Source: Podarcis gaigeae
Lineage: Eukaryota
NCBI GenBank assembly: GCA_964106915.2
Contig: OZ066921.1
DNA length: 64,000 nt
Direction: 5' to 3' (one strand)
The notes under the pieces were generated by a model. The model had not been told where the DNA came from. It did no database searches and saw only the letters and a program-made list of their open reading frames with translations. Position numbers and translations under genes: made by a program. Position 1 is the first letter of the stretch. Every line of letters begins with the position of its first letter. Of this stretch, positions 17,001 to 55,600 are shown in pieces.

Positions 17001-20000
17001 GAGCATTCTTTTGTCACCCAGAGGTAATTTGGCTCACACTGGACAAAAGGATTAGAACAGAAAATCTGCTGGCCTTGAATTTTCAGAACAAGCCACTGCT
17101 AGAAATAGAATACATTGCTGCTAGTTTCAAATGCATCACTATTTCTAGAAAATCCAAGGCAACCTACAGCAGGAGGAAGGGAAATAATTGTGGGGAGCAA
17201 AAGTGCAGAGTTCTTAAAGCATTTCAACCACAAGCATAGCTTGTCATTTCAATTTGCTATTTATTGCTCATATACTGCTCAAAGCGTTGAGGAAGCAATG
17301 GGGCATTACACCTGGAATAATGATCAATAAAATGCTTTGTCTGCACTTTACTCAAAACGCCGTCTCTCAGGAATGTAACATCATATCTCAAAGAAAAACG
17401 CACATGCCTTTAGAGAAGGTAACAAAGCAGCTCTCCCTCCTCAGAGATGCTAATTCTTATTGATGCAATTTAACTGCTACCACACAAGGCAACTCTGTAA
17501 CTGAGAGATGGGAAGTTCATCAGCAGGTCACAGACAGAGTTACGGCTACCTTTAAAAACACAGCTCTGAGCCTATACACAGGATTCCATGAGCTCTTCCA
17601 CCCACCACACCTCAGATAGTACTCCAAATTGTGTATTAATTTGTTTCTTATCCATTGCATGCTGTAAATAAATGAGGCGACCAAGAAGCAGAAGCTTTGG
17701 GGTCAAGAAAGATAGTGGAATGGCCAGGTGAAAGAGGCACATACCTTTTCACTCATAGAGTCTTCAAACTTGTGGTTAAAGAGACACTTGTACACCCTGC
17801 CTTCCCCAGCCTGAGTCTGTGAAACAGAGCAACAATATTGGTCATGAATGTCATATGGAAACATATTAGGAGGATCCTAGTATCCATAATTAAAAAAAAA
17901 AAATTAACACATTCATAGCCTCCTTTTTCTTCAAGGACCTCAAACCAAAGGTACATGCAATTATCCCCATTTTACCCTAACAAAACCATGAAATAGGTTA
18001 GGCAAAATTATTTGTTTAAGGCCACTCAATGAGAGTGATAGCTAAGTGGCTATTAAAACCCAGGTTTTGTATCCCACCAAGTTTTATTCAGAGCAGACCA
18101 GCTGAAAGTAAAGGACCCATTAATTTCCATGGGTCTTCTCCACATATGCACATCTCTTCAGTCCAACTTCAGCATTCCATTCTCTACATCACACTGGCTA
18201 CATTTTACCATAGGCCAACATTTTGTGATTTACAAGTCCTCTGTCATTTATATATGTTGTGCATGCTCATGACTAACACTTCCATGCATATTTCTGAAAT
18301 GAGTTCAATATATTGCCTATATTATCTGTAGTGCACCTTTGAGAGATCTGTTCTTGTATTCCTTAATTTGTTACATGTAGGAGCATTTACTAAATGACAA
18401 GGCGAGAGGGGAAAGGGTGGGGAGATGGATGCTAGTCCAACGGGAAGGACGATGTCAAGCAACAACTTACGTTCTCACAGAAGCGTTCCCGGTCATCCCG
18501 GCAGGCAAAATATAAGTGCCGATCCAAGTGGAAATCATCCGAGGAGAGCTCAGCTACTCGGAGAATAGCCTTTTTGCACAAGTCTGAGACCTTTATTCGT
18601 GGCTCAATCTCTTCTGCCTCCTTTACCAATCCTTTCTCCAGGCAGGCCACTACCTCTCCTTGAGAATGGACATCCTGAAAGAAGAGAAAGAAGCTAAGCA
18701 GCAGCAAGACACACTTCCATCTAGCTCTTCTCTGCATGTTGCATTAGGAGCCTACAGAAGCATGTCTTACGTTGAAAGAACATGGTTCAGTTCAGTACAC
18801 CTGTGGTCCTGAATTTCTGTCCTCCACCCGCCCCAAGAAAGTCTGCAGCTGAAAACACCACTGTATCTCAATAAAATACCTGAGCCTGAAAGAGCATGCA
18901 GTTGACCTAAATTTGAAGGTACCCTCAATCTACCAAAGGCTAAAAGCACTTTCCCAGGGTGTGCCCCTTCCAGAGGACAGCCCAGATTCACTCACACAAG
19001 AAACATTCCTTCTGCCTAGCACTGGTATAATATCACAGGGAGACAGGATAGTAATTTAAAATGCTGACCATAGAACGTGGTCACACTTCAACTGGCTTCT
19101 TCGGAGCAACATTGATTCTAATGAGACAATATCCTCTTCCCTCCCACCTCCAATTTAATGGACATGGAATCACTTTGTAACAGAATTACCTTTTCTCCAA
19201 GACGAATGCTGCCACACTTCAGGATGTTAATATCACTTCTGCAGTCATCCATGAAGCCACAGATCAGGCGGTAATCACTGAAAATTATGGCTGTCATTTT
19301 GGTGATGTACTGGTGACACTGGTATTCAGTGATGTTTCCTCTGTGATCTACCAAGCAGGACACCAAGTAACCTTTCCCAACAGGCTCATCAGCACACTCT
19401 TTGATCTGTCCAGAAAGACCCATGATAAAAAGAAGCCTGTATTTCATTTGGCATTTGCAGATCATTTTATTTACTGCCTACTCAGGGTGTTTCCCAATAT
19501 AGAGAGATTTTTATAAAAACAATGACACCAATTTTCAGAAAAGGGGATGGAAAAGGAGAGCCAACTGTTTATTCCCTAAAGGTTCCTGGAGAATGGAAAA
19601 TGTGGGGTGTCAACCCTCACACCTCACCCTAAAAGCAAAAATGAACATAAATTTTGCAAGCTCCACACTAAAAGGACCATGAAAGCAAGCTGTAATCACT
19701 CAATAACTTAAGATGTCATTGTTAGACTCTACATGCAAAATACGGTGCTCAAGGGCAGTCAGGAGTCAGTCTCAAATGTAGCCAGGGCCTGTATCATTCA
19801 GTTACTTGAAAGCTGTTTTGAATTTAATCTTCTGGTAGCCACTGTAACCACATGGCTGTAGTAGCTTAATCCAATAATAAAAGTCGATCTTCCACATTCA
19901 GAAATAGCTGCAAGTGACATAGCAGCATTCCTGCAATCTCTCATGTATGAGGGGTAATTACACGTGGCTTTTTAAATCAGAGAATAAAGTGCAGTCTGCA

Positions 20001-22662
20001 GTTTTCTCCTTTGAAATATCAGCGTGATAAAGACAACTAGATATGAAATGGAGAAAAGCTGCTCAGGGCTGGTATTGGAAACCAATATTCTGAGCATGGT
20101 CTTAAATAGAGCAGGGACTAAGGTACTGTGTGCTTTTTCAGAGGATCAAGCTTTAAGTTAAGTTTACACAATCCATCAAATTTATTACATTTATGTCCTT
20201 TCTTTCCTCCAGGAAGCTTAAGACAGTTCTCTCTTTTCATCTTCACAGCAACTTTATGAGGTAGCTCAGAACTAGACCATGTGACTGGCCAAGGTAATTC
20301 AGTAAGCTTCTGGCTGAATGACAATCTGGGTTGGGATTTCTCCATCCTACTGTGACAATCTACCGACAGTTCCCACCCATCCCAAAATTTTGGAGAAAAT
20401 TCTTAAAAGCTCATTGCACATGTGAGTAGAAAAAACCACACACGACAAAAAGAACTTTGGGTAATTATTCATTTGTTGCTGGCTCAGCTCTTATGCTGCT
20501 GGAACTAGTTAAACAGGTTGAATATTCAAAACAAAAAAAAATCCTTCCAGTAGCACCTTAAAGACCAACTAAGTTAGTTCTTGGTATGAGCTTTCGTGTG
20601 CATGCACACTTCTTCAGATACACTCAATCTGAAGAAGTGTGCATGCACACGAAAGCTCATACCAAGAACTAACTTAGTTGGTCTTTAAGGTGCTACTGGA
20701 AGGATTTTTTTTTGTTTTGACTATGGCAGACCAACACGGCTACCTATCTGTAACTGGAACTATGGAAGGTTGAATATTGTATTTGAGTGGATAATGAGAT
20801 TACGTTTGAGTTTCTTTGGAGAAATAGGCAATATAGGATTTTTTTAAAAAAGCAAATAAATTTCAAGACCATCCCCACTGGTCATCTGTTTACAGAATGC
20901 AACTAGGTCTGAAAAAAGCTAGGTCACTATGCTTGGAATCTGAGCACTGATACATTGCTCCCTCTCCCTCTCTTTCTCTTTTTTAAATACTTTATGTACA
21001 CTTATGCGTCATACTAATAAACAATAAATAAAACAAACAAACATGTAATACCAAACCAGAAACATACAAAGCAAAAAAACCCCACATAAATACAGTCATG
21101 ATAACAAAAACTACAGACAAGAATATAGACACTATATTCTCCTAAGAAAAAGAAAATATTCACTTCAAGAAAGAAGCTAAAAAGAAATGGGGTTAGGAAA
21201 ATAGATGACTTCCAGCTAACTCCATGTGGTTCATTCTTCTCATATCACTGGTTATCTGTAATGATTAAATTTTGGAGAAACATTTTTATTACCTATGAGA
21301 TTTTTATTCTAAGCTAAGCCAAGTATAATTCTGGGAATCAGTTCTCTTCATATAATTTATAAAGACTTCCCACTCTCTCCTTATTCTCTTATTTGAATAC
21401 ATTCTTATTAGACCTGTAAGTTTAACCAGTTGGAGGTATTCTGAGAATTTCAAAATCCATTCTTCTTTTGTTGGTATTATAGTACTTTTCCAATGTTTAG
21501 CAATTACTATTATGGCTCAGTAACCGCATACAAAAATATTCCTTTATTATCTTTTGGGATGTCTGTTGTTATTAGGCTCAATAAAAACATTCCTGGTTTC
21601 TTTGGGAAAGTAAATCTTAGCATTTTCTTTAGTTCATCGTAAATACTGTGCCAATTTTTTTTTTATTTTAGGGCACGTCCACCACATATGGAGAAAGTTC
21701 CCTTCATTGTGATTGCACATCCAACACTTTCCACTGGTATTTTTTATATATTTTAGCCAATTTCAAGGGTGTGAGATACCATCTGTACATCATTTTTTAA
21801 AAAAACATTCCTTTATTGTGTAATATGCTATAAACTTTATGTTCTTTTCCATAAATTTTCCCATTTTTCTCATTCAACTGAATAACCAAAATCTTGGGCC
21901 CACTTAACCATAACCTCTTTAACTTCTTCGTCCTTTGTGCCAATTTAATAATAATTCATACATTTTGGACAGATTTTTTTCATCATTTGTGATCAATTCT
22001 TTATCTAATTCTGAGATTTAATATCATATCCATTGGTTTTTTTATATTTTTCAAAGATTGCATTCAGTTGGTGGTACTGTATCGCCAGAGTGGTGTATGC
22101 TCTAGTTATCTCCCGCTGCAATATCCTACTGCAATGCGCTCTATGTGGGGCTACCTTTGAAGGTGACCCGGAAACTACAACTAATCCAGAATGCAGCAGC
22201 TAGAATGGTGACTGGGAGCGGCCACCGAGATCATACAACACCAGTCCTGAAAGACCTACATTGCCTCCCAGTACGTTTCCGAGCACAATTAAAGTGTTCG
22301 TGCTAACCTTTCAAGTCCTAAACAGCTTCGGCCCAGTATACCTGAAGGAGCATCTCCACACCCATTGTTCTGCCCAGACACTGAGGTCCAGTGCAGAGGG
22401 CCTTCTAGCAGTTCCCTCACTGCGAGAAGCAAAGCTATAGGGAACCATGCAGAGGGCCTTCTCGGTAGTGGCCCCTGCCCTGTGGAATGCCCTCCCATCA
22501 CATGTCAAAGAGATAAACAACTACTTGACATTCAGAAGACATCTGAAGGCAGCCCTGTTTAGGGAAGTTTTAAATGTGTGACATTTTAATGTATTTTCAA
22601 TCTTTGTTGGAAGCTGCATAGAGTGGCTGGGGAAACCCAGCCAGATGGGAAGGATATAAATA

Positions 22663-25700: not shown

Positions 25701-28700
25701 ATGTGCCTCATTGTCCAAAACAAAAAACAGACCCTGGTAAGCATGCCTGGTACCCCAGGGATATAGATATAGGTAGAGATATGTGTCGGTGAATAGCTGT
25801 TTCAGGTAGATGAGTGGAACAGGAAGGAAGAGACTTAAAATGCCCTGTCTACCCAATTCATTGAAAGAGTCATCCTATTAACACAATGCCTCCAGTCCAC
25901 TTTTTACTTGACTTTATTTATTTTTTAAGTTAACCATCCTTCATCTAAAGGGTGATGTATAACAATATTAAAATACAACAACAGGGAAATATAATCCACT
26001 CTCAAGTAAAAACTAAAAACGCAGCAGCTAAAATGCAAAAATGAGACCTAAGACAGACATAGTCACTTTAAAATGTCTGGGCAAAAAAGGAAATCTTAAC
26101 TTTGCACCAAAAAGATTGTAATATCAGCACCAGTTTAACAAGCTGGGGTGCCACTGAATAGTATCATTTTAATTAAGGCATTCTTCTGTGCAAACATAAG
26201 CCCAAACATCATACTATCCTACTTGACTCGATTTAGTACTTATGTTCCTATCAAGATGATCCCAAAAAATCTAAATTGTCTATATAGATCACAGAGAAAT
26301 AAACAAACAGGAGCCTTTACTACTTAAAAGGAGTCGGCCTAGGATCCCTGAAAGAAGCCAATTTGCCAGAAGCAAATGTTGCAAAGTAATAATAAATGCC
26401 ACTTACAGCTCCCTCCCTGTTTTCTTTAAAAAGGCTTTAAATATCTGGTTTTATTAGGATTTTAAACTGTATTTTCTCTTTGGCATATGGCTTTCTATAA
26501 TTGTCTAATTATAAGTTGTGAGGTGCTGCTCTTTTAAGGTTTTTTTTTAAAGATTGGTTTTAAATGTTATATTTATTCTAAGCCACCTTGAAAAAGTCAG
26601 AATATAAATCACTGAATCAATAAAGAAGCAAGTGCCAGCCCTACAGAAAAAAATCACTTACGTGGTTGCAGTCTGATGAGATTTCATTGTCCGGCTGGAA
26701 AAAGAAAGAAAGGGACATTAATTCTGAGCAGGTCATGTTGCACTGTATTCCTTCCACACGAACAGGCACAAACTATTGTTTCAGAATAATGTGCATTATT
26801 AAATAAATGATGAAATCAGACCACAAGAGATTGTCAACTCACAGATTAAAGGCAAATTTATCTAATCTAATCAATCTCTGCTGCCCAGGGAAATGGCCTC
26901 GACTGAAAGGCAGCAGTCATGGGATGTTTTGCTTTTTTGGAACAGTGGTCTTATATTGCTTTTGCAATAGCGTTATTTCATAAAGCAATGAAGTGTAGAC
27001 AAGCCAGAGATTTATAAGGCACACTAGAGGTTCCATCAAACTAAAGCAAGTAGAATTTAATTCATGAAATATTTCTCATGACCTCTTCAGATCATAGGCC
27101 ATCCAGAATTTTTTTTTTTCCTGTCCATTGGTCACAGTTCACAATTAGGAATTACAATTTTGAAGAAAAGTGCTAACAAAACTCTCATAGATTTTATTTT
27201 GTTCCCTTTGGAGCAAAAGTCCAGAAGTTATGAAGTCTCCGCCCAGACAGAGTGGAACGGAATAAAAAGAGGCTGTATTAATTGCCCTCCACCCAGGCCT
27301 GCCTGAAAACTACCACTCACAGCCATTAAAGTCTCTGCTCAGCCAGAACTTCCATCAGAACTCCTCTGGCTGCTACTTTTCCACTTAACTCCCTGCTTGC
27401 ACATCACAAAGTGCCATATTTACACCATTACCCCTTCAAATCCTTCTGCAAAACCAATCTTTTTTGTACAGTCATACCTCTTGTTACATTTGCTTCATGA
27501 TATGTTTTTTCAGGTTGCATCCCATGGAAACCCGGAAGTACTGGAAAAGGATAACTTCCAGGTTTCGCCACTCGCACATGCGCAGATGCGCAAAATGACA
27601 TCACGCATATGCACAGAAGCTGCGAATCGCAACCCGCGCATACGCGGATGCACAGAGGAGGGTTGCGTTCCTTTCAGGTTGCGAACAGGGCTCCAGAACA
27701 GATCCCATTCACAACCAGAGGTACCACTGTAATGGGTTTAGATTAACTATGCTCAAGTACATGTAAGCTCATCTGCTCACATTCACTAGCTTTTGGTGGG
27801 TAGGGACTTCTTTGTTTATAACACTATGAAGCATCATGTGCACAAATGACTCCATATATTTATGAAATACTGATAGTTGTACCCATCCCTAATCAAAAAG
27901 CCAGAAAAACCACTCAGTCCCTCCAGCCTCATAGCTCCCCGCGCCCCAAGCCACCTTGCTGCTAGCTCCAGTGGAACTCATTCTGGCTCCTAGCCGGAAA
28001 GCTGCCTGCTATTCCACAACAGCCTTGATTCCGCAAAACTGTAGATGCACAGGCGTCAGCTTCACAATGGGAGCAGCACAGGCTTCAGTGAGCCTCTCTC
28101 TGCATTTCCCCTCAACCTGAGCTGGGTTGCTTGTTCTCTGAGCTTCCTTGGCAAAGGTCCTTCAGGTTGAGTTCAACTACTGTGCCTTCACAACTGCTTG
28201 TTACTTCTTGCAAAGCAACCATGTGATATCAGTATTTGCCTCAGTGGGCGAGACCCAGCAGCAATATCTTGCAACACGGTGACCCTTGTGTAATTTTCAG
28301 CAAGAGACTCAGGTCACATCCTGCATTGTAAGAATTCTTATGTAGACCTCCAGGATATTTATGCACTGTGGCTGCAGAGGTGAATGGAAGCACACTCATG
28401 CCTCTGCTACCAGCCAGAGGACCGAGGGCCACTCAGAGGCTGTACCCCCAGTTCCCAGAAAGGATCTTGACAAGGGGAAGAGGAACCTGGCCCTAAATGT
28501 CAGCCAGAGAAAGAGCAGCTTCAACAGCTTCTTGTCCTGGGACTGGAGAAGTTAGCAAAGGCAGAGGACACTCTCATGGCCCCATCCAACAGCCAAAGGG
28601 TGGGGAGCCACCGGCTGCTTTCAAGCCAGGGAAGACCTGCCCCACCCAAGCTGGATAAAAGTGCCTGCTTTGTTATTAATTTGCTCTCCTTTCTCTACCT

Positions 28701-37700: not shown

Positions 37701-40700
37701 AATTGCAAGCCAACACTCAAAAGTTTTTGACTGTGCACAGGCACACAAGGAATCGCCAGGGGGAAAAAAGGGAAAAAAAGCCCACCTTGTTTGTACCCGT
37801 TTTCCAGGTCCTGCATTCCACACTCTAATTCTAGCTGCCCTTTGCACCTACACTTTGAATTCGTTCTTCATGTATATGGGCAAACAGCATTATTCCACAC
37901 ATCATCATACTAGAGTCTATCCAAAGTCACAATGGGGCTTTGACATGATTTTCTTACTGTGCCAGCTGCAGGAAAAATGCTGAAAATAGACATGCCCTTG
38001 TATATAGTCTTCATAGACCTGAAAAAGGTTTTGACCTCGTCAGCCAAAAAGGACTCTTCACACTGCTCCACAAGATAGGATGCCCACCTAAGCTTCAGAA
38101 GAAGATTGTGTCCTTCCACAAGAACATGAGCAGCACCATCCAATATGACTGCTCACTCTCAGATGCCTTCCCTATAATAAGGCCTAAATTTTCATATTTT
38201 TCTTCCAACCAATGTTTACAGAAGATGAGCCCCCAAAACACACATTTGTCTGTAAATGCATGGGCTTATACCTGTACTATTAGAAATCTGTCAATTGACT
38301 GAGCATCACAGTATGGTTCAGATCATTGGTTTGGTTACACAGCTGCTAAACAGGGCCAGTGCAGGCTTACAGATATGGAGATAATCCAAACTAGCCCAGT
38401 AGTTGCCACATTCAAGCTTCTCAGTGAATATTCATTCCTTAATGGAAGGTTCAGCTGTGTCAATATTGGTTAATTGAAGACACAGATCAGTGAACAATAA
38501 ATTATAGCTCTGATGATGAGAAGCTAATGCAAAAGGGTAGAACAGTTTACAGCCTGGTTCCATTTATTCTCCCTAAGGCGAAAGGGCGCCAGGATGCAAT
38601 GCCACCCTGCAGAGTCACACACATACCCAAATAAATGTATTATGTCTCTTAACTTTATGAGAGAATCTCTCTTACTCTCTTTGGTGGAACTAAAGTTTAA
38701 CACACATACAGTACACAAATGCAACATTTCATGCCATCTTTAAGCTGGACTCCTTGCTCCCCTCATCCTACCTTCCAGAAATAGCTGATACAATTTTCTG
38801 CCTCCTGCCTCAGTGCTAACATAGAACTATGAACTGACTCAGAGAACAAAAGCAGCAGGACCTTTGCTCTCACACATATGAGGATTTCTCCACAAAGGAC
38901 ATTAACACAGCACAGGGCAGAATCAGAACACCCAGCAGTTATCCTACATGTAAATTAGGTGAGAATCTCCTCCCCATTCATCTCAGATAGCCTTTTCCTC
39001 CCTCTTTACATAATCACTACAAAATGAGTTATTTCCATATCATCTGGGCCCTTTTCAGCATTGCTTGTTTCCATTAAAATATTTTCTATAAAACAATATG
39101 TATTTAATTCTGAAAAGATCAGAAACTTTGGGTTTCACAAAAGTTGATACATAGACTTTAGGGACATCAAATACCAGGGAGATTTTTCTTTAAACTAAAA
39201 TGGAAACTTGCAAAGTATGCTCAACACCAGATCTGAGATAGGAGATACATATTTACTTGACACAAGACAGGCTAAGAATCTGCCAGCAAAAGCCTACCCA
39301 CTTAAGATCACCATGTGCCCAAAATTACTTGCTTCTTTGTTCTAGTTCAAATACAGTGGCACCTTGGGTTACAGACACTTCAGGTTACAGAACCCAGAAA
39401 TAGCACCTCGGGTTAAGAACTTTGCTTCAGGATGAGAACAAAAATCGTGCGGCAGCGGCATGGTGGCAGCAAGAGGCCCCATTAGCTAAAGGTTAAGAAC
39501 AGTTTCAGGTTAAGAACAGACCTCCAGAACAAATTAAGTTCTTAACCCGAGGTACCACTGTAAATGTTTTCATACCAGATCTAACCTAAGAAAGAGAATA
39601 AAGCATTGAGAAAACAGAGATCTACAAGAAATCCCTCAAGAAAGGTCTAGGCCTCTGCTCCACCTGCAAGGTCACAAAACAAAACTAATAGGCAAAACTA
39701 ACAATTTGAAACTAAGTCCCCCCTAGCCTTAATTCTGCAACTGTTGGAGTAGAAGAGTACAGAAGGCAATGGTGAGAAAGGCAGGGAGGAAGAATAGGGG
39801 GACGAGAAGGAAGCAGCAGAGAGGGTCACGGGGTTGGGTAGAGTCATCGGGTACCATGGAGGACATTAACTCCAATGTGAACCCGATGCCCAAGTGCAGG
39901 AGGTGGAGAAGCAGCTGGAGAAGCAGAGCAAGCAGCTCCACATCCACAGTGCCAGTGGAGCTCTAGGCGGCAGCCCTAAAAGGTTTCTTGGCTGACTTTG
40001 CTGCCATCCCCTGCCACCACCAGGAGCAACTGTCTGCTGCAGGGCTTGCCCAAACAAGGCCAGGCCCAAGCATCCTCTGTTGAGCGAAAACAGCACAACA
40101 GGAAGCAGCCTAGTGCCAGCAGACAATTCAACAGTAGAGGGAGTCAAGGAGAATACAAGCCTCCTGGATGAAGTGGAGCCACTGGAGGCTGAGGAGCTGG
40201 AGCAGCTGGCCAGGTGAGGAGATTCACCTGGCTCACAGTACCAAAAGGTATGCCTCTTTTGTGCTGTGTAAGCCAGGTGATCTATGGGACACTGCTACCC
40301 CACAGATTAGCTGATTTGTGCAGAAGGCCTGCTGCTCTGCAGACCAACTGATTGCTCATGCCAGCCAGCCAGATGGAGATGTTAGGCACCAAACCTGGCA
40401 CCGGGACATCTTCATTGCCTCGCAAAAGGCCAGCAGCCTGTCTTAAAATGCAACTAGCACCTAGCTAATTTTGAACGCTGCTTATACTTTCAACATTCTC
40501 ATTCTAGTTCTCCGGTGCTGTTGCTAAAACCGCAAATATCCTACTCACCAACTCCAAGCCACAATGTCAGGCAGGTGACAGCTACCATTTTTTAAACAGA
40601 TATCCCGTAGCATTTGCACATACAAAAATAGTGGCAATGTTGGCAGCTTAAGAGTTTTCTTATTAAGCCATGTAAATTCTTCTAAGGAAATCTATAAAAA

Positions 40701-43700
40701 TTTCTAAAGAAATTAATAAAGACACTCTGGGGACTCCTGTCATAACAAATCCCACTTTGCCAGTTACGATTGGGAAGAACATAGAGATCACTTCCAACCA
40801 CAACCACCTATCCCCAGAAAGTGAATCAGCTTCACCACCAACACGCTGAAGGCCATGAAGACCAAGGACACAGAATGTTGAGAAACAACCTTTCTTATCC
40901 CACTTGTTCTCAGCCTGCATATGAATAATTTCTAACAGGCACAACTGTTCTAAGAAATCATGTGCACCTAGTAAAAGTTTGGTTAAGGAAGAACACTATT
41001 TCTCTGTACAATTCCTGCACAAAGGTGGAATCCAAATCCGTTACTTTTACTGCGTTTCCCTGAAGTATCTGTTCAGCTCAGATTCCGTGGAACCTGCAAC
41101 ATACTGAGGGGAAAAACATGTACAATGAGTTTTCTAGAAGATTCATTCAGGGCATGAAAGCAAACACAGTTTTAACACAGTTCAAACTAGATAAGTGAAA
41201 AGGAATAGAACTGCCAGAGCATTCAAGGAACAGCAGTTAAAACACAAGCATGACTCATCACCACAGCAATCTATTACTCTGTGGTTAGAGAGATGCAGGG
41301 GTGGGGATTATCTACCTTAACTAATCAAACTGCAAAAAAAATTCCTTCCAGTAGCACCTTAAAGACCAACTAAGTCAGTTCTTGGTATGAGCTTTCGTGT
41401 GCATGCACACTTCTTCAGATACACATATCTGAAGAAGTGTGCATGCACACGAAAGCTCATACCAAGAACTGACTTAGTTGGTCTTTAAGGTGCTACTGGA
41501 AGGAATTTTTTTTGTTTTGACTATGGCAGACCAACACGGCTACCTATCTGTAACTAATCAAACTGCAGTGCAGGGGCCTAGGGAAGAAGACCACTCTAAT
41601 CAGCTTCCCTTCCTCCAAAGGCTTAAGACACATCCTCAGAGTACATCAATCCTATTTGCTTCAGTTCATGCTTCTTACTCAAGCTATACAAGTGTGAACA
41701 TGAGAATCTTGTCCAGACTCTGCTGGAAATAGGTAAACTACCTGCTTACTACATTTTTATTGGCAACTACCCATTAATGAGCCTTAACTAATGAGTTAAA
41801 CAGCTATACTAACTGCTTAATGACTGAAACTCTTCTAGTGACACTGCTGCAAATCTCCAGGCACCATCTGCTCACTTAAATTTTCATACTGACAGGAAGT
41901 TATCATGCCTGTCTTATTGCAAAAGGCACAGGCAAAAGAATATAGGCATTCAAAACATTTTACAATGACACAACAGTTAAACACGATATCAATTCAAGAA
42001 CACCAGGCACATGTGCAAACACTTGCTGGAATCCCCTATTAAACATATACATACATAAAGTTTTCCATGTAGCTTTTTTTAGACATACCATCTTGGCACA
42101 ACAGCCAGGCTGGGATCAGCAGCCATTTGGCTCTACCTCCCACACCCCTGAACTGTCTCCTACATACCACCTCTCTGCATGAAACTTCATTATGTACCAT
42201 AATGAAAGCTCTGGCACTTGAATTTGCTTATTTTCTTCTTTCTTCCTCATTATTTTTCTTTTTTGTATCATATTGGATCATAAGCCATTTTTTAAAACTG
42301 TCAACTACTTTGAGCGGTTGGTTTAGCCATCCAGCCCCAAACACTCACCAAGCTACAAAAGCAACAGTGGCAGGAAAATAAACCAAGCTCTGGAAAAGCA
42401 AGTCATGACTTGTTTGCTCATCTATGAGACAACTCTTAAACAAACTGTAGCTTAGTGTTATGTAGGAAGGCAGTAACAACAGTCTTTGGTTTTTTTTTGT
42501 AATTAGCATAAGTATCCAACTCATTGATGCTTTTCTTTGTTATTCTTACAATGTTAATGCTTTAAAAGTCTTGATCAACACATAATTGGTTAGTTCACTA
42601 AAGCAGTCACATTCCAATTTGTAATAACAACATATGTAGGTTTACTTTTAAACCCAGAAAAGTTATTGCAATATGCAAGAGGCATAATAGCACATTTTAG
42701 CACAGAGAAGAGTGGCAGGGGACAGAAGACAAAACTCTGCTAATTTATCATTAATACAATGCTCTGCTCCTAATCTACCCAAGGACAGCAATCCTGTTGA
42801 GCACTGATGTTTTGTTACTCCATCCCCTTCTGGGATAAAGGTGGTATTTACAAGTCATCCACTCTACCCATAACTTCATGGACACAAATGAAGTCAAGGG
42901 TTTCAGGCTCAGCAGGTTCATTAAACTAAGATCAAATAGTGACCTACAAATTGTTGTCATCAACAACTTTGTTACTGCAAATTACTTTAAGCTAAACTAA
43001 CTGAGAATCACTGCAAAATATTCACCTTTTTTCTTGAAGTTACGTGACACTTGCAAATTTTACTAACATTCTATTTTCACATTCACTTTTCATCAGTTCA
43101 TTGTCCATCTGGTAACAAGACTTACACATATATGTCTATTCAGAAGTAAGTCTCGTTGAGGACTTACTGGGGCAGCAGTCCCCACACTTACCTGAATGAA
43201 GTGGGACCTAAAAGAAGGACCTGCCTTCTTTTAAGGGCAAGTGTATTATAATGGTTAGAGTGTTGAACTGTGACGTGGGAGACCAGAGTTCAAATCCCTA
43301 CTCGGCCATGAATTTCATTGGGTGACCTTGGGCCAGTCGCTGTATCTCAGTCTAACCTACCTCACAAACTGATTGTGTGGATAAGTTGGGGAGGGAAAAC
43401 TATGTGCACCACGAACTTCTTGGGGGGAAAGGTGGGCTATAAAGCATAATCAATAAAAAATTAAAAAATGATTTGAGCTTGTTTTATCTTTCTCTTTGGA
43501 CAATTGTTTCTCAGTATAAATAAATATGTACAACTAATTTAAGACAAAACATGCCAGACTCACTGTTCAAGATGCTTTGCAGTCCAGAGGTACATGCCAA
43601 TAGCATGGGTAATGTTTCTAATGGACTAATAAATTTTCTGGGTGCCTTTCTGAAAGGTTCTGTTACTTATTGACAGAAGTGGGCAAAAAAAGCACTCTGT

Positions 43701-46700: not shown

Positions 46701-49405
46701 TCAAATCCAATATTAATGTCACAGCATCAGATGACTGTTAGGGCTCTTTATCTTTTAATTTAAATAACTAAACAATCTCACTTTAAAGAACAAACTATGT
46801 TTCAGTCATTTATTTAGAAAAGTTTATAAACAGTTTAATCACAAAATAAGTGTTTTACATACTTTCATTAAAATATTGGTGGAGGGTTCACTTTTAAAAT
46901 ATATCCCCCCAAAATCTCACAACCAGCAACCTTTTCTCACCAGGGTTGGAAGGTTCAACTGATGTGCTCTTTCTTGGACTTCTCCCAGAATCAATTGCAT
47001 TGCCAGAAGTGCCCAATGTAGCTCTAATGCGATGGGACAGTGTATCTGAGTACAGTGGTACCTCTGGTTAAGAACTTAATTTGTTTTGGAGGTCCGTTCT
47101 TAAGTTGAGGTACCACTTATCTAATGGGGCCTCTCGCTGTTTATGCGCCGCCGCCACCACGTGATTTCTGTTCTCATCCTGAGGTAAAGTTCTTAACCAG
47201 AGGTACTACTTCCGGGTTAGCGGAGTCTGTAACCCGAAGTGTTTGTAACCTGAGGTACCACTGTACAGTCTTTACAAGTTTGTGGGAAACACTCCTGTAC
47301 TGACTTAGGTTGCACTGGGATCTAGGGTTCTCAGGATGTCCAACTTAGAGCTTCCTAAAAATTTCCCCCTCTTCTTATGAAAACACACAGAAATAGCCAG
47401 ACAGAGACCTAAAATAAACTTGGTTAATTTCTATTCAGAGAAGGTATCTCAAAGAATGACAATGAGCAGTTGTTAAGTTATTTCTGAGACTTATACATCC
47501 TATATTGAACCATAGAAAAACAGATAAGAATTTCAAGTTAAACAGCCTACAGGACAGGCCATAAGGCAATGGTAAAGCACCTGTTTTGTGTGCTACAGTT
47601 TGCAAGGTCAGTCCTCAGCAACTCCAGGTAGGTCTGGAAATGTCCTCTATATGAAAACCTGCAAGACCCCACTGCCAGTCAATGTAGACACTACTGAGCT
47701 AGACAGAGCAATGATCTGACTCAGTATAAGGAAGCTTCCTCAGTTCCAATTTTTCTGTTTACAAGCAATAACTTGTGTAACAATCTAGTAACTCCAGCTA
47801 AACTTACAACAATTTCTATCAGCAGTAACTCTGAATTCATGCATTCCTGCCAAGCTAGCTAGTCTGAAGCTGGAAACAGATTGTCAACCTAAAGTTGCTT
47901 CAAGAATAGGCATATTACATGCTGATATTGAAAACAGACCCACAAATGACCCAACACAAAATGCCATACTCCCTATGGCAAGAGATCAATTACTTTTCCC
48001 ATACGCGTCTCAAATTGCAAACTATTATTTGCTCTACAGCTGCTAAAGTGAACCTGTAGTTGACTTATGATTAAAAGCCACAAGTGTTACTAGCCTGACC
48101 GCACACACACCTACCTATATTAGTCATTTGTGGCACAGTGCGTGAAAGAAAAAGAAAGCTCTTGTATTTACAAAAGCCTCCCTCCACGGACAGAGGAAAT
48201 TCTTGTCGCAAGCAGCAAAGTAAGGAGGCAGCCAGGTAAGGAGTTTTGCCAATCCTGAATTATAGGATCAAGCTGTCTACCTCTGTTGGAATAGAAATAG
48301 CAGGATTGATTCACTTTAAGACAACTCAACCAGCCACGAGGGTGTGACCGAAAGACAATCCCTACTCAAAAAGTACCCAGCATAAGCTTTATCTTCAAGA
48401 ACATCACAATGGGGGGGTGGACTATCATGATAAGTATATTCATCTGGGCCAATTCCCTGAAACAGCAACGTTTTTCTCTCTCTGCTCCTTTCCCCGTTTT
48501 CTTTTAAACTATGAATGCCAGAAATTGGCAACACCGCTGTCGGCAGGCCTGCCTGAGCCAGAAAACGGGCTCTGCCCACAGAAGTGTCTTCGCTTTCCCG
48601 TGCAGCCCTTCGGCCTTTTCCCTTGAAAACAAGGATTTGCTCCTGCGCCAGAAGGGAAAGGGAGCTACTGGCGAAGGGGCTGCACTTGCTCCCTAACTCT
48701 TGGCAACCGAGGCCAGGAGGAGCTATGCATGCGCGCATGGTCCTGGCCGCAGACCTCCATCCTGGACGCCACTTCTTGGTTACACCGGAGAGTGACGGAG
48801 GACAGAGGTAAACCTGGGTCAGATGCAGGTTTCCTAAAATTGCCAGGAGAGGCTATGTGCATTGCTCCGCACCTGGGCTGGCCTCTCCCTGCAGCCGCCC
48901 GCCGCAAAAAAGTTGCTCTATGGGGGTCCACTGCCCCGAAGCCCTCCCCCGACCTCCCTGGCCTCAGTTTCCCCACCAGCTAGGAGGGGCTCCCCGCCCC
49001 GCTCACCTCCCGCACGTCCTGCAGGCACTCGAGGACGGCCAGGTTGTTGGCCCAGCTGTGCTTGGGGCAGACGCGGGTCACGTCTTCGCGGCACACCGGC
49101 TCGTCCGCCAGCTTCCAGCCGCCTCCCGCCGAGGAGCCCCCGCGGGGCAGACGGCCACCCCCAGCTCCGCCTCCGCCGCCACCCGGGAGTGCTCCCAGCC
49201 CCAACTGAGGCAGCGGCTGGCCCCCCAATCCCCCTACGGCCGCCGGCTGCTGCCCCGGAAACCCCTGGGCGGCCCCGACCGCCGCTGCCCCGCCTTCCTG
49301 CTGTGCCCGGGCTGACCCGAGAGCCACGAGCAGCCAGAGGAAAGGGGCGGCGAGGAGAGGGCCCGGCCCGCGTCTCCGGGCCGGGACACGTCCGCACGGC
49401 GCCAT
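344..49405 (-). CDS. GLG1: Golgi glycoprotein 1 (ESL-1/CFR-1/MG-160), coding exons 1-18; 3' part lies beyond position 1
   Basis: 18 GT-AG exons join in frame (2490 nt, 830 codons). They encode a signal peptide followed by GLG1 Cys-rich repeats that match the vertebrate protein as I recall it (e.g. WANNLAVLECLQDVRE, LLWNYKLNLTTDPKFESVARE, SSDDFHLDRHLYFACRDDRERFC). Confidence 0.98.
610..1160 (-). mobile_element. Old L2-like LINE 3' fragment
   Basis: Resembles the reverse complement of the L2 3' end (gggagggacttcc...ggggctgtcacagagaaa); hosts a MITE. Confidence 0.5.
968..1103. mobile_element. hAT (Charlie/URR1-like) MITE
   Basis: Perfect 15-bp TIR CAGCTTTTCTCAACC; internal ggactacaactcccatca; 8-bp TSD cccttgaa/ccctagaa. 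Confidence 0.85.
1215..1342. other. Assembly gap (128 N) in GLG1 intron 17
   Basis: Run of N; exons 17 and 18 join in frame, so no coding exon is hidden in the gap. Confidence 0.97.
1602..1719 (-). CDS. GLG1: GLG1 exon 17
   Basis: VDVVICLSTIVRNDTLRDAKEHQVSMKCRKQLRVEELEM; CAG/GTAAAA. Confidence 0.96.
1860..1948 (-). CDS. GLG1: GLG1 exon 16
   Basis: VQMKDFRFSYKFKMACKEDVLKLCPNIKK(K); TAG/GTATGT. Confidence 0.95.
2406..2519 (-). CDS. GLG1: GLG1 exon 15
   Basis: EVADNQIDSGDLMECLIQNKHQKEMNEKCAIGVTHFQL; CAG/GTGAGT. Confidence 0.96.
3399..3461 (-). CDS. GLG1: GLG1 exon 14
   Basis: DIQIEALMMRACEPIIQTFCH; TAG/GTAAGT. Confidence 0.95.
4132..4218 (-). CDS. GLG1: GLG1 exon 13
   Basis: ELECLQDHLDDLAAECRDIVGNLTELESE; CAG/GTAAGT. 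Confidence 0.95.
4691..4828 (-). CDS. GLG1: GLG1 exon 12
   Basis: LSRECRAEVQRILHQRALDVKLDPALQDKCMIDLGKWCSEKTETGQ; CAG/GTATCT. Confidence 0.96.
6466..6619 (-). CDS. GLG1: GLG1 exon 11
   Basis: LDLVLYRKCQGDASRLCHTRGWNETSEMIPPGAIFSCLYRHAYRTEEQGRR; CAG/GTAGGC. Confidence 0.95.
6765..7140. mobile_element. Tc1/mariner-type MITE
   Basis: 17-bp TIR CAGGT(C/G)ACTCGCAACTT; TA on the left flank. Confidence 0.7.
8148..8249 (-). CDS. GLG1: GLG1 exon 10
   Basis: ILSCLMEHLYTEKMVEDCEHRLLELQYFISRDW(K); TAG/GTGAGT. Confidence 0.95.
8650..8771 (-). CDS. GLG1: GLG1 exon 9
   Basis: LQTLIQEADPGADYRIDRALNEACESVIQTACKHIRAGDP(M); ends phase 2; CAG/GTAGGT. Confidence 0.95.
12643..12857 (-). CDS. GLG1: GLG1 exon 8
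   Basis: GRQVSSECQGEMLDYRRMLMEDFSLSPE...SCQQS; TAG/GTAAGG. Confidence 0.96.
13988..14034. repeat. Compound (TG)n(CG)n(CA)n microsatellite
   Basis: Direct observation. Confidence 0.95.
16766..16949 (-). CDS. GLG1: GLG1 exon 7
   Basis: CRDALTTRQKLIAQDYKVSYSLAKSC...CLESAVHR; ends phase 1; CAG/GTAAGA. Confidence 0.96.
17745..17816 (-). CDS. GLG1: GLG1 exon 6
   Basis: TQAGEGRVYKCLFNHKFEDSMSEK; CAG/GTATGT. Confidence 0.95.
18471..18674 (-). CDS. GLG1: GLG1 exon 5
   Basis: DVHSQGEVVACLEKG...RDDRERFCEN; CAG/GTAAGT. Confidence 0.96.
19190..19405 (-). CDS. GLG1: GLG1 exon 4
   Basis: IKECADEPVGKGYLVSCLVDH...KCGSIRLGEK; CAG/GTAATT. Confidence 0.96.
20526..20766 (+). mobile_element. Penelope-like element fold-back (inverted pseudo-LTR) insertion, copy 1
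   Basis: Perfect 94-bp inverted repeat (20526-20619 / 20627-20720), then tail ctatggcagaccaacacggctacc...; 12-bp TSD aggttgaatatt (20515-20526 / 20767-20778); hammerhead core typical of PLEs. Confidence 0.8.
20584..20621 (-). ncRNA. Minimal type I hammerhead ribozyme motif (PLE-type)
   Basis: GUAU-CUGAAGA-A-GUGUG(CAUG)CACAC-GAA-AGCU-C^AUAC: CUGANGA and GAAA core, 4-bp stem I, palindromic loopless stem III; mirrored on + at 20627-20662 with a shortened stem I. Confidence 0.7.
20975..23325 (-). mobile_element. 5'-truncated L1-clade LINE (ORF2 C-terminus + 3' UTR), interrupted by an L2
   Basis: Minus-strand decayed motifs KYLGIWIT (~23190), AKYIWQGKK.RIKFK (~23000), WLQ/YHQL across the L2 insertion, CCHC knuckle KCWMCNHNEGNFLHMWWTCPK (~21670-21730); A-rich 3' end. 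Confidence 0.8.
22083..22713 (+). mobile_element. L2-clade LINE 3' end with (TAA)n tail
   Basis: Decayed YCNALYVGLPLKVTRKLQLIQNAAARMVTG...TPVLKDLHCLPVRFRAQ; 3' UTR; (TAA)n tail at ~22661-22713. Confidence 0.85.
23340..23440. mobile_element. Truncated left half of a subfamily A-like MITE
   Basis: tagtggttctttggtttac...ggaggtccgtt...ctttcaccaatggggcctc matches 50671-50767. Confidence 0.65.
24138..24224 (-). CDS. GLG1: GLG1 exon 3
   Basis: LLWNYKLNLTTDPKFESVAREVCKSTISE; CAG/GTAAGG. Confidence 0.96.
26662..26694 (-). CDS. GLG1: GLG1 exon 2 (33-nt microexon)
   Basis: PDNEISSDCNH; pyrimidine tract + CAG acceptor, GTAAGT donor; absent from the ORF track. Confidence 0.95.
27469..27729. mobile_element. 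Tc1/mariner (Tigger/pogo-like) MITE, subfamily B
   Basis: TA|CAGTCATACCTC ... GAGGTACCACTG|TA; internally the reverse complement of 59954-60192. Confidence 0.85.
29458..29926. mobile_element. hAT-type non-autonomous element
   Basis: CAGTGTT...AACACTG termini; 8-bp TSD tccactag/tctactaa; its right end recurs at ~44670-44764. Confidence 0.7.
30350..31250 (-). mobile_element. Degenerate L1-like 3' fragment
   Basis: T-run plus tttattg at the start (poly-A/AATAAA on minus), followed by composition like the L1 at 20975; no intact motif confirmed. Confidence 0.35.
31287..31527. mobile_element. hAT MITE
   Basis: CAGGGGTGGCCAA / CAGGGATGTCCCA termini; 8-bp TSD ctctaaag/ttctaaag. Confidence 0.8.
31875..32015 (+). 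mobile_element. Short tRNA-derived SINE with CR1-like tail
   Basis: gatagctcagttggtagagcat...gggcaaaagattcctgcattgcagg...cccttccaacc. Confidence 0.75.
32164..32529 (-). mobile_element. Sauria SINE, full length
   Basis: tRNA-like head (GGGATGTGGGTGGCGCTTTGGGTTAAACC...GGTTCGAATCCC), Sauria SINE body, (ACCTTT)n tail. Confidence 0.9.
32584..32764. mobile_element. Tc1/mariner MITE, subfamily B-like
   Basis: TA|CAGCGGTACCTC ... GAGGTATGACTG|TA. Confidence 0.85.
33925..34290 (+). mobile_element. Old L2-like LINE fragment
   Basis: Decayed tgtatgtgggactgcttttgaaag...gcagccagg...gacctttaaag similar to 22140-22390. Confidence 0.5.
34348..34483 (-). mobile_element. Short tRNA-derived SINE with CR1-like tail
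   Basis: Reverse complement reads atagctcaattggg...attcctgcattgcagggggttgggctagatga...ctctatgattcta. Confidence 0.7.
35200..35332 (+). mobile_element. Short tRNA-derived SINE with CR1-like tail
   Basis: Same family as 31875-32015. Confidence 0.75.
37912..38180 (+). mobile_element. RTE-clade LINE reverse-transcriptase fragment
   Basis: RVYPKSQWGF/DMIFLLCQLQEKC...PLYIVFIDLKKVF...IGCPPKLQKKIVSFH, with stops and frameshifts. Confidence 0.8.
39354..39560. mobile_element. Tc1/mariner MITE, subfamily A
   Basis: TA|CAGTGGCACCTTGGGTTA ... TAACCCGAGGTACCACTG|TA; inverted relative to the 47053 and 50671 copies. Confidence 0.85.
41333..41555 (+). mobile_element. Penelope-like element fold-back insertion, copy 2
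   Basis: Perfect 89-bp inverted repeat (41333-41421 / 41426-41514), same tail as copy 1; 17-bp TSD taactaatcaaactgca (41318-41334 / 41551-41567). Confidence 0.8.
41385..41422 (-). ncRNA. Minimal type I hammerhead ribozyme motif (PLE-type)
   Basis: Identical 38-nt motif to 20584-20621; mirrored on + at 41426-41462. Confidence 0.7.
43235..43460 (+). mobile_element. tRNA-derived CORE-SINE
   Basis: A box tggttagag, B box gttcaaatcc, CORE gtgaccttgggccagtc...cctacctcac, A-rich tail. Confidence 0.8.
47053..47263. mobile_element. Tc1/mariner MITE, subfamily A
   Basis: TA|CAGTGGTACCTC ... GAGGTACCACTG|TA. Confidence 0.88.
47548..47747 (+). mobile_element. Diverged SINE with CR1-like 3' end
   Basis: tRNA-like head, then ctgccagtcaatgtagacactactgagctagac...tgactcagtataaggaagcttcct; partial copy at ~37352-37440. 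Confidence 0.6.
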
Positions 49406-50670: not shown

Positions 50671-50883
50671 CAGTGGTACCTTGGGTTACAACATAATTCG
50701 TTCCAGAGGTCCATTCTTAACCCAAAACCATTCTTAACCTAAGGCACGCTTTCGCTAATGGGGCCTCCCGCTGCCACTGCACAATTTCCATTCTCATCCT
50801 GGGGCAAAGTTCTCAACCTGAGGTACTACTTCCGGGTTAGTGGAGTTTGTAACCCAAAGCGTTTATAACCCGAGGTACCACTG
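50671..50883. mobile_element. Tc1/mariner MITE, subfamily A
   Basis: TA|CAGTGGTACCTTGGGTTA ... TAACCCGAGGTACCACTG|TA; collinear with 47053-47263. Confidence 0.88.
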
Positions 50884-51708
50884 TAATTAAAAGATATGTT
50901 CAGTGTACCTCGAATTCCAAATGGCGAGTGGTTTCAGACACTCAATTGGCTTTACCATTGCACCAGTACAGTTCCAACTTCGCTGCTGCCCTTCCCCACC
51001 CAGATATACAAGAACAGCACAGTTGGGAGGGAGACCCTGAAACACCACCACGCCTGCCTTTCACCCAAGATAAACATTGAATTCACTCTGTCATTTAGAG
51101 TGGAGACTATGCAGCCACCTTTCAGCAAACTAGGTAAGTTTCACAGTTGTTCCAAACTCTGGTAGATTAGCTTGCTACATGATTACCTTGCTACATGGAA
51201 ATATCCCAATCATATATCATAATTACCACAACATATTGGATCCACTAACCCAAACTTCAGGACTTATTTGGCATTTAGAGGATCCTATATTTATATCTCA
51301 AACATTGCAGTTGCTTGTGAGGCAGTGCAAACAGCAATTTAACATTGCAATGGAGGGTTTTGCCATTTGGAGAAAGCCAGAGATATTAAACATTCTTCCT
51401 CTTGTATATATTAAACATTCTTTATTCTTCCTGTTGCATATAAAAGTAGTATCTCACACACACAAAGCACAGTTCAATGGAAACATGTACATTTTTAGAC
51501 AAATGGGCCATACAGTTAAACTTTAGAAATGTTGTTCTGTAATTCTGTATAGTAACCCATCAGTTCAGGCAGCACACAATGGTGTGATTTCTACGGGCTT
51601 CAGGTAAAGTAAAAAAAACAACAACCCTAATATTGGTCTTGCAATTTGCATCACTCTCTTGATTGCTAGCCTTGGGCAAGAACACATACATGAAATATTT
51701 GATCCTAT

Positions 51709-52642: not shown

Positions 52643-55600
52643 CTGCAGGATAAACAAATAGAGTCACAGCTTATCAGGAATCCTGTTGCATAAAAATACA
52701 ACTCTAGCTGTTACTAGTTGGGATGTAGCAAGGAGACCAGTTACAAAAGTATTGAACTGTTACTTTCCCATACATTGGCAAGCAGCCAAACATCACCACA
52801 CATTTTGGGTGGATTCAGAGTGAGCAAGTGATTCGTGGTGTAATGCTGAGGACATCCCTCTTTGGCGCTCCCTGTGTACAAGGAGGAGTGGTTGCAGCCC
52901 TGGCACAGAAAACATGCATGTCCATACCCAGAGTCAAGCCTCAAGGAAAGTGAGAAGAGGGAGGACAAGAGAGCCCCATGTCCATATAATGGAAATGGCT
53001 CCAAAGAGGCAGATACAGGTTCTACCAGTGTCTCAAAACAGAATTTTCACTAGAACAAGGGCTCAAGTCTTTTCTCAATGACCAACCCGGCATTAAGCTC
53101 TTTGAAGCTACATAGCCTTAAAAACATAGGAAAACAATTACTCAAGTACCCTAACCACCACCAAAGCTTCCAGCATTTTAGACTATTAACACAGAGCAGA
53201 ACACAACGTCCTACTCCTACAACAAAGAACAAAAAAATGGTACCATGGCAGAGTTTGATGCTTCATCGCCAGCACACACAAGAATACTACCATCATCTTC
53301 AGGACTCTGGAAGATGGCATTTTTGGTCAGGAGTTTGCACGATGGACCTGCAGTAAGAGTTTGAACTGGACGACATGAACAGATCACATCCTCAGTCCCA
53401 TCAGTCAGCTGAGTAGAGGTCAGCTCCATCACCACACACCGTAAACAGTTATTGTTTCTATCTGTGGGATGAAAGTGAAGAGCTTTCCAGGGGACAGGTA
53501 GGTATCAAGGTATCATAGGAAGGTATCAAGACAAAACACTGTACTCTGGTTTAAGTGCAGCCCAGAGGCCACTGCCTGACCGCTTCACTCACCGCTCATG
53601 GCAACTACCCCATTTCCTTAGGATACTACTCACTCACAATCCCTTCCTTGCATGTCATCCCACGGAAGCAGGAGGGCTCATACTGCACAGAAGGTCCCTC
53701 TTGGGAGCTGCAAAGTTCTAGGGAGGGATAGACTCCTGAAGTAGTTGGCACTTACCCTTCACCGGGGTGGAAATAATGCCTCCCATAAAAGATCCATATT
53801 GTATTTGGGGATAGGAGACTGCACCCTCTGTGCCCCATCATCTTGAAAAGATTTGGGGAGACTGGGGTACAGAATAACTGGTGCAGCACTTTAGATGCAG
53901 GCCAGAGGTATCCTCTTCTCTTTTAATGTGTGTGCAAGAGACGCCAACAACAAATATGGTAAGTGGTTTCTGTCCACACAGTTGTAACTGTGTCCACATT
54001 TAGGGTGAAAGGAATCCCAACACTGCATAAAAATAGCCCTGCCCTGATGTCTACACATCACAACTTACTGGGTCTGAATGTTGCAAGGCAGTGCCGTGTG
54101 CTGGCCTCTGTCTGAAGGTCAATGCAACCTCCAGGCTCCAGAAGGAGGTGGTGAGGCCGGTAAGAGCCACTGGCCTTCTGTTCCCAAAAGCAGGCTCCCT
54201 CCAGTGTCCCAGATACCAGTCCACCATAGGGCAGTGAGGCAGAGGCCATTCGGGGAAGATACGATAAGGATACCACAGGGCACCTGTGAGGGACAGAGGA
54301 AAGAGCAATAACCAACAATGTCAAACCATTCCACTTTCCCTACCCATTTACTGTTGTGAATCTGAATGAGCATGAGTAAGGAAGGATTTCAAAGAGAACT
54401 GGAGAATCACTCTCACTTCTACATACCACTGGCCAAAAGAACTGGTGCTATGACTGAAATCCTATTAATATTTACCTCTGAGCAAGCACCACTGAACACT
54501 GCACAATTGACTTCTGAGTAAGAAACAAACTGAGCTCCATATCACCATGACTGTTCACAACCCCAGAAAAGAACAAGGTAGAAGTCAATCACTGCAAGCA
54601 ACATTGCAAGTATGACAATCTCTCCAGGGCTTACCTCACCCAATGTTCATTCCTATTCCTCATCCACAGAACTGATTGAAAAATACACATTCTGAGAAGT
54701 CTTAGTGCAATGCATTAAGGACTGGAAATGGGTCCCAGACAAGTTTATCAAGCTAAACCTCTGCCATTACGCCATTCTCAAAGGTCTTCATTCTGGGTTA
54801 CAGTGGGGAGGTAACCAGCAACCAGAGTAAAAGGTAGTGTTCCTCAAATTCTGTGCCAGGAAAGATATACCAGTAACACTTGGTGTGAAAATTGTAAAGT
54901 TCTACAAGCACTGATCATCCTTCATCTGCTTCAAAGTCCTCTACAGTCTTAATTCATATGTTCAAAGGACAACCTAACTGTATAAAGCAGGAAAGCGATA
55001 CCTGGATTTCTGTGGAGCAAGCTCCTGGACATGAGAGCTTGTGTCCCTCAGGTCATACACCAAGACAGAGCCATTGACCAAGCCAGCATAGACATAGTTG
55101 GTGTCATCCAGGCACCAGCTGCAGCTCCAGACAGGTCGACCAGTATTGTATGTCTGCACAACGGTGTTTGTAGTCAAGCTGAGGGAAAGTTAGCAGAGCT
55201 TTACATATCAAAGCGGTCTCCCATTGAGGACCTTGGCACTTCTGCACATGGCCCACGCTATCCAGCAAATACCCAGTTGTGGGCAGAACAGCACAGTTCA
55301 GACAAAGCTGCTCTGCAGGAGCCAGGCAATATTTCCAAAATAAGATCCTAACACAATCTCCTGGACCACAGAGAAAGGAAGCAGGCATCATAACCATCAC
55401 TACTCACCTGGTAAGCTTGAGGGTATGGTCTAAAGCAGCAGATAAGAGCAAGCCATCTGCACGGTTGCTGAAAGCCAAGCCCCGGATCTGCTTGCTGTGG
55501 ATGGGGACATATTGGCTGCTCTTTGAGTTGACAGCACTCATCATCTTAATTCCACAGCCTGAGACACAAAGCAAACTGATCAGCAGAAAGCCCACCCTGC

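Follow-up and report, generated by a model that had tools for sequence, protein, structure and literature searches.

Intronic head-to-head palindromes in a lizard genome are likely short insertions of a Penelope-like element

The sequence analysed here is a window of 64,000 nucleotides from Podarcis gaigeae (contig OZ066921.1). It contains two short palindromic elements, here called copy 1 and copy 2, both located in introns of a gene whose minus-strand exons carry the Cys_rich_FGFR repeat. On the basis of short peptide motifs at approximately 49.0, 26.7, 24.2 and 19.4 kb, we take this gene to be GLG1, with copy 1 in intron 3 and copy 2 in intron 1. Upstream of it, on the same strand, are exons with RING and RFWD3 WD40 domains (53220-58977). 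The window also holds five non-coding repeats that are related to one another and whose short terminal inverted repeats adjoin TA (27465-27730, 39350-39565, 47050-47265, 50730-50890 and 60060-60215), in at least two subfamilies, which we take to resemble MITEs of the Tc1/mariner type. A plus-strand frame at 37949-38299 has no Pfam match, and resembles a decayed fragment of an RTE-type reverse transcriptase (RT). A weaker inverted repeat (968-1103; 63-nt arms, 78%, with a 10-nt loop) adjoins a run of N. The longest perfect inverted repeats in the window are, for the best 15, all registers of copy 1 or copy 2.

Copy 1 is a DNA palindrome of about 240 bases. Its two arms, 20526-20619 and 20627-20720, are 94 bp long and perfectly complementary, and are separated by a loop of 7 nt (20620-20626). 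The whole is flanked by an exact direct repeat of 12 bp, with the left target-site duplication at 20515-20526 and the right at 20767-20778; the base at 20526 is assigned twice, as the end of the left duplication and as the start of the perfect arm. When random flank pairs of the same size were drawn from the window, 32 of 20,000 shared a word of at least 12 bases. Between the right arm and the right duplication is a one-sided tail of about 46 nt, on the plus strand from 20720/20721 to 20766. The arms, loop, tail and duplication are all as given in a preliminary description of this DNA. That description also stated that there was no ORF, which holds for long ORFs, but the tail opens with an ATG (20723) and 14 open codons on translation. 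By analogy with a rotifer Penelope-like element (PLE) in PMC3846280, this ATG is likely to be the start of the parent ORF. Directly upstream of the left duplication, nine bases (20500-20508) match the end of the tail (20754-20762), with the register off by three bases from that of the duplication; this may reflect pairing of target and template at priming, a longer duplication that has decayed, or chance.

The loop can be divided further by comparison with longer relatives, seen as loose ends of contigs (discussed below), since bases 20620-20624 run on into the sequence of these relatives. The inverted, tail-less arm would thus extend from 20527 to 20624 on the minus strand, perfectly complementing the right arm over 20526-20619 and corresponding to a leader from its proximal end to a putative transcription start (+1) at 20624. 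The direct arm (20627-20719, plus strand) would start at +6 of the same transcript. The two bases between them, 20625-20626, match neither arm when the sequence is compared by eye with the loose-end rows, and are likely to be untemplated; in the cDNA sense, the first of them reads C.

Copy 2 (41318-41567, plus strand) is an independent insertion. Its arms, 41333-41421 and 41426-41514, are 89 bp long with a loop of 4 nt, and its duplication is 17 bp (41318-41334 and 41551-41567); the loop sequence is different, and both the left arm and the tail are shorter. The two copies are 97% alike, have nearly the same centre, and both lie within 64 kb. A blastn search found no third copy in the window. 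The duplications overlap the ends of the elements, by five bases at the tail end of copy 2 (41551-41555), two at its left end (41333-41334) and one at the left end of copy 1 (20526). Short pairing of primer and template at both nicks would give shared bases of this kind.

All four arms of the two copies contain a hammerhead core, and each has one unpaired base, a helix II of 5 bp and a loopless palindromic helix III. On the minus strand, helix I has 4 bp in each copy, while on the plus strand it has 2 bp in copy 1 and 3 bp in copy 2. In copy 1 the more complete motif is therefore the one in the inverted arm (20584-20621, minus strand), with a predicted cut at 20588/20587. In the direct arm the core is intact and helix I is down to 2 bp, with a predicted cut at 20658/20659. 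Judged by its sequence, the motif is a minimal type I hammerhead that fits the PLE consensus of PMC4209133 (Fig. S2A). The core in each arm, the predicted minus-strand cut and the assignment to minimal type I hammerheads of the PLE kind had all been proposed beforehand and can be retained. A check with hammerhead models had also been suggested. A search of the window with Rfam gave no matches at gathering score, and with E values up to 10 allowed there was no hammerhead match; the hairpin alone gave only sub-threshold matches, mostly to generic microRNA stems, and a single arm gave two chance matches. A minimal-hammerhead descriptor (helix I of at least 3 bp, helix II of at least 4 bp) accepted three of the four cores, failing only the plus-strand core of copy 1 with its 2-bp helix I, and had no matches in 100 dinucleotide shuffles of the window.

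The region around copy 1 (19600-21700) was compared with contigs from four of 23 sequencing runs. In two of the four, one contig each from organisms C and F bridges an empty site from 20526 to 20781, with approximately 450-930 bases on each side. Since the site is found empty in contigs from two other species, the element is a true insertion, and the insertion with target-site duplication put forward in the preliminary description is borne out. With a clean 12-bp duplication, two bases would be expected from 20526 to 20781 in the empty alleles, but these have 10, eight more than predicted; other small indels nearby also separate these species. Contigs of organism B and of a second individual of organism A enter the arm from the left flank, by 14 and 26 bases respectively, and begin again in the tail at 20742, which fits presence of the element, although these overlaps fall short of the 31 bases required by the rule applied. 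The summed depth over the element is approximately 30,000-95,000 times that of the flank in the four runs, a figure that gives an order of magnitude and not a copy number; on this scale the family would have about tens of thousands of members. Copy 1 is thus a young insertion of a very abundant family, one that is probably already catalogued in Repbase or Dfam. The neighbouring stretch 21200-21600 is another, lower-copy repeat, whose depth exceeds that of the flank several-fold to about 18-fold in each of the four runs.

The contigs also show what lies beyond the arm. Among the loose ends listed, 13-19 contigs in three runs and 28 in the fourth pass through the loop into a common upstream sequence (agreement 0.55-0.76). 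In the consensus of this sequence, which was counted by hand from few contigs, a TATA box begins 30 nt upstream of the base equivalent to 20624, an A in initiator-like surroundings. The spacing from TATA box to start and the initiator consensus used here are the textbook values, and from them we infer that transcription starts at this A. The inverted arm of copy 1 reaches as far as the +1 A, with a C next to it in the cDNA sense, and that of copy 2 stops at +2; the direct arms begin at +6 (copy 1) and +5 (copy 2). The largest hotspot among the loose ends listed is at 20621, which is +4 rather than +1. The first loose letter there is C in all four runs despite AT-rich flanks. Cap-directed base addition by a reverse transcriptase would give a C at this position. 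The C at the +4 hotspot and that at the junction of copy 1 would fit such an addition, although a subfamily variant could also give the hotspot C. Since the arms begin at an initiator-like site with a TATA box 30 nt upstream, the arm is likely to be a run-off cDNA of a PLE mRNA leader, made from the tail up to where transcription starts. The promoter spacing, the ATG in the tail and the plan of the rotifer PLE together suggest that the unit is likely to be such a leader, bounded by the start of transcription on one side and the RT start sites on the other.

The likely assignment to PLEs, whose defining feature is an ORF for a telomerase-like RT plus GIY-YIG linked to the terminal repeat, is based on four anatomical features. 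The first is the minimal type I hammerhead in the pseudo-LTR, present in the three cores that pass the descriptor. The second is an inverted, 5′-truncated copy head-to-head with a direct copy, found in both copies in the window and in further head-to-head joints. The third is a tail of 30-40 bp at one end only: the main end, at 20755 in all four runs, is 36 nt past the mirrored arm, and copy 1 runs 11 nt further. The last is insertion with a target-site duplication of variable length, here 12 and 17 bp, with the empty site, including its eight extra bases, seen in two of four runs. The second and third features are the standard PLE layout (PMC8557442 and PMC8969392). In the rotifer PLE of PMC3846280, the pseudo-LTR has a TATA box 20 bp from the initiator, the inverted copy is 37 bp shorter than the full repeat, and the tail lies inside the ORF start or first codons.

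The elements resemble the EN+ PLEs (Penelope/Poseidon and Neptune; PMC8557442 Fig. 2 and PMC3846280 Fig. 2) in the head-to-head copy, the one-sided tail of 30-40 bp, the long and variable duplication and the hammerhead, and also in a tail that overlaps the likely ORF start and in having a longer form with a candidate promoter, a TATA box approximately 20 bp from an initiator-like site. They differ from them in that there is no ORF between the repeats, only an inverted arm, a direct arm and a tail, and in that both arms start at the putative transcription start. The termini of the element may resemble those of reptile Neptune elements, a clade marked by a Zn-finger-like linker joining RT and EN and by its place in RT phylogeny. 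The motif itself is like the minimal type I hammerheads of metazoan PLEs in its core, the unpaired base after position 9, the G10.1-C11.1 pair, the loopless palindromic helix III and the 4-bp helix I; the closest row listed in PMC4209133 is a painted turtle motif of very similar build, not marked there as PLE-associated. The same work describes pairs of motifs that lie on opposite strands with 100-700 bp between them, and takes single motifs to come from truncated PLEs. In contrast, the two motifs here adjoin within a single perfect hairpin, and little of helix I is left in one of them.

Searches for relatives were made at several levels. Among the 137 frames of at least 80 aa in the window, none has an RT or GIY-YIG Pfam match. 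An exact 26-nt pattern had no matches in collections of viral, metagenome and prokaryote genomes, and a degenerate pattern had none in viral contigs and two in metagenomes, both due to chance: the first falls within a 771-residue frame with LINE-type RT motifs in metagenome contig L001 (839-3154, minus strand), which is unrelated to the element, and the other is without a hammerhead or a long inverted repeat. Both were rejected as relatives. The arm sequence had no match in the supplements of PMC8557442 and PMC11167929. In a literature search covering titles and the starts of abstracts of mostly open-access papers, we found no description of the family, or of PLE palindromes tied to a transcription start.

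On the basis of these observations, we consider it probable that each element is an insertion with a target-site duplication around it, in which a short sequence, likely the 5′ leader of a PLE mRNA, is present twice, head to head, and that the palindrome is built anew at each insertion and not copied from a hairpin master. Judged by its sequence, copy 1 would then likely be a PLE stub made at insertion.

Whether the hairpin-only form is a mobilised family in its own right was the question left by the preliminary description. One or a few fold-back masters would in that case be transcribed whole and retrotransposed in trans by a PLE protein. The 97% likeness of two hairpins within 64 kb, with centres nearly the same, speaks for this, as does the high depth over the element, with the caution on copy number given above, and non-autonomous PLE derivatives are described in PMC8557442, bioRxiv 10.64898/2026.07.22.740005 and PMC6685494. 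However, the two arms of a copy do not differ from one another at any position (0/93 in copy 1, 0/88 in copy 2), whereas two positions that differ between the copies are alike in both arms of each, so that the arms of each copy share private variants. A family of self-standing hairpins has one common centre and common ends; both of the complete copies, a small sample, differ in loop, left end and tail end, as well as in duplication length. Only these two complete hairpins were seen, and contig counts cannot separate hairpins from solo arms.

The contigs nevertheless add other junction forms. Among the loose ends listed (24 of 1,088), 46-64 contigs in each of the four runs pass at 20621 from the element into AT-rich DNA that is unrelated (agreement 0.37-0.38), and one-armed copies with the same 5′ limit are therefore common. 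Tail ends among those listed fall at 20755 in 38-50 contigs (all four runs) and at 20763 in 33 contigs of one run, and tail-less ends fall at 20527, 20534 or the mirror position 20712 (20-29 contigs). Among the joints listed (15 of 348), all 15 connect a left-arm base at 20567-20623 to a base of the right arm or tail at 20630-20734. In seven of the 15 the left arm is complete to 20615-20623 with the right side cut anywhere, and nine share two or three bases. These joints have short sides (20-28 bases) and 88% likeness and are flagged as weak, and later deletions inside palindromes could yield similar joints. Taken together, the arm variants, loops, ends, junctions and one-armed copies favour formation anew at each insertion. 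In addition, the TATA box lies outside the hairpin, and a full transcript would form a duplex of about -175 kcal/mol and be a poor template. The evidence thus leans against a mobilised hairpin family, which we regard as unlikely.

For the way in which insertion builds the palindrome, we put forward a more tentative proposal, to which we would give somewhat less than an even chance: that in this lineage the short PLE insertions represent full run-off cDNA (strong-stop-like) of the capped leader of the mRNA, and that the head-to-head palindrome comes from two target-primed reverse transcriptions, one for each nicked strand and RT start site. An autonomous PLE would be transcribed from a TATA/initiator promoter in its pseudo-LTR, giving an RNA that would start about 8 nt before the hammerhead core and run through a 95-nt leader into the ORF. 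The RT/GIY-YIG protein would nick both target strands and begin reverse transcription at two closely spaced internal sites of the RNA, one at each end of the tail. With only about 95-140 nt to copy, each cDNA would soon reach the RNA's 5′ end and run off. Priming at the distal site would give the arm with the tail, and priming at the proximal site the tail-less inverted arm. The cDNA ends would then be joined, with loss of a few bases and addition of one or two untemplated ones, or one would snap back and anneal to the other. Finally, fill-in of the staggered nicks would produce the 12-17-bp duplication. The product has no TATA box and is therefore likely to be a dead end.

The chemistry in this proposal is assumed from in vitro work on the Poseidon element PAc of the green anole. 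In that study (PMC11167929), the purified protein, a predicted dimer, cuts and extends both target strands, two internal RNA start sites bound the tail, and uncut RNA is the main template. There are two differences. Priming in PAc is reported to be without target homology, whereas the junctions here share 1-5 bases with the target. The PAc ORF starts in helix II of the ribozyme, whereas here the frame of the helix II ATG closes after seven codons, and the ATG with the open frame stands some 95 nt further on, where the tail begins.

Two other routes were rejected. Pure snap-back of the tail-primed cDNA is excluded because copying the tailed arm cannot give a tail-less arm that reaches further 5′, as it does in both copies (+1 and +2, against +6 and +5). 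A ribozyme-cut RNA as the main template is rejected because both copies retain the core upstream of the cut. It is worth adding that joint ends within three bases of the predicted cuts (20585-20589 and 20658-20661) number five of 30 among the joints listed, against roughly three expected on a rough count; a minority of copies might derive from cut RNA.

A different origin at insertion has been proposed for the head-to-head palindromes of rotifer PLEs (PMC3846280): self-priming of an antisense transcript with a folded-back 3′ end. Applied here, it would still make the element PLE-derived and would equally yield identical arms within a copy. However, it leaves unexplained why the centre falls at +1 to +6 of a TATA/initiator site on the sense strand, why many one-armed copies stop at the same point, and why the tail is one-sided; moreover, priming on sense RNA at two sites has been demonstrated in vitro for another PLE (PMC11167929). 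We give antisense self-priming a low probability.

The fate of the hammerhead inside the hairpin was examined by folding. In the full element, an RNA forced into the ribozyme fold pays a penalty of 60-63 kcal/mol; for a lone arm the penalty is about 3. Whichever strand is transcribed, the antisense arm is made before the motif, and the ribozyme is therefore predicted to be buried in the 94-bp duplex. Lunse et al. reportedly described PLE hammerheads that cleave as dimers. The head-to-head arrangement means that no dimer can form in cis. According to PMC4209133, minimal hammerheads are inactive as monomers and have low activity as dimers; they require a partner on the same strand, and even then cleavage is weak (PMC4209133 and PMC6765202). 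Because of the fold cost and this requirement, the hairpin is predicted to be double-stranded RNA and not a double ribozyme, with the hammerhead, according to the folding model, locked inactive inside it. The initial wording of a ribozyme on both strands was right about the cores in both arms, but overstated for a plus-strand helix I of only 2 bp and a fold that costs about 60 kcal/mol. Likewise, the initial picture of a PLE unit of about 250 bp, made of ribozyme, mirror image and tail, stands for the PLE-like anatomy (PMC8557442 Fig. 2), the ribozyme and the tail, but not for two working ribozymes.

A functional cassette, cleaving host pre-mRNA or making circular RNAs in the manner of retrozymes, is very unlikely, even though the cores are intact, the better-formed motif is on the sense strand of the host gene, and PLE ribozymes can be protein-assisted (PMC11167929): besides the buried fold and the weak activity of minimal hammerheads, the two motifs of the hairpin are on opposite strands and the insert is missing in two of four runs. 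The elements do share with non-LTR retrozymes (bioRxiv 10.64898/2026.07.22.740005) that they are short, non-coding, hammerhead-bearing and likely derived from a pseudo-LTR. However, those are head-to-tail tandems with two ribozymes on one strand, whereas the copies here are head-to-head, and neither copy has a head-to-tail tandem array. Finally, a MITE or fold-back DNA transposon with an incidental hammerhead likeness, or an assembly artefact, would suit a short, non-coding, palindromic, high-copy sequence with a duplication, but is scarcely credible given duplications of 12 and 17 bp in place of a fixed length, a one-sided tail and variable ends in place of terminal inverted repeats at both ends, a descriptor-passing hammerhead that appears in none of the 100 shuffles, and two copies in different unique flanks, with contigs of a second individual and a second species entering the element from the flanks.

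The element is thus an expected form of PLE insertion and not a new class, and the reading as two run-off cDNAs is a mechanistic lead. PLE integration, the head-to-head repeats and the one-sided tail are unsettled in the literature: PMC3846280 proposes self-priming of an antisense transcript, and in PMC11167929 the later steps are left without validation. A young and very abundant family, with 5′ ends clustered at a predicted transcription start, would let the two-cDNA model be tested. If it is true, tens of thousands of stubs would show to the single base where transcription starts, where the two RT starts lie and how the ends are joined. In the transcript of the host intron, the palindrome of copy 1 is predicted to form a 94-bp duplex that would be a substrate for ADAR and not a self-cleaving RNA. 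In this respect, Penelope is a heavily A-to-I-edited LINE-class repeat in a lizard, with over 40,000 sites (PMC5625713), which by analogy fits the predicted fate. Introns of this lineage would then be seeded with perfect double-stranded hairpins that silence their own ribozyme, and a large pool of intronic double-stranded RNA is predicted.
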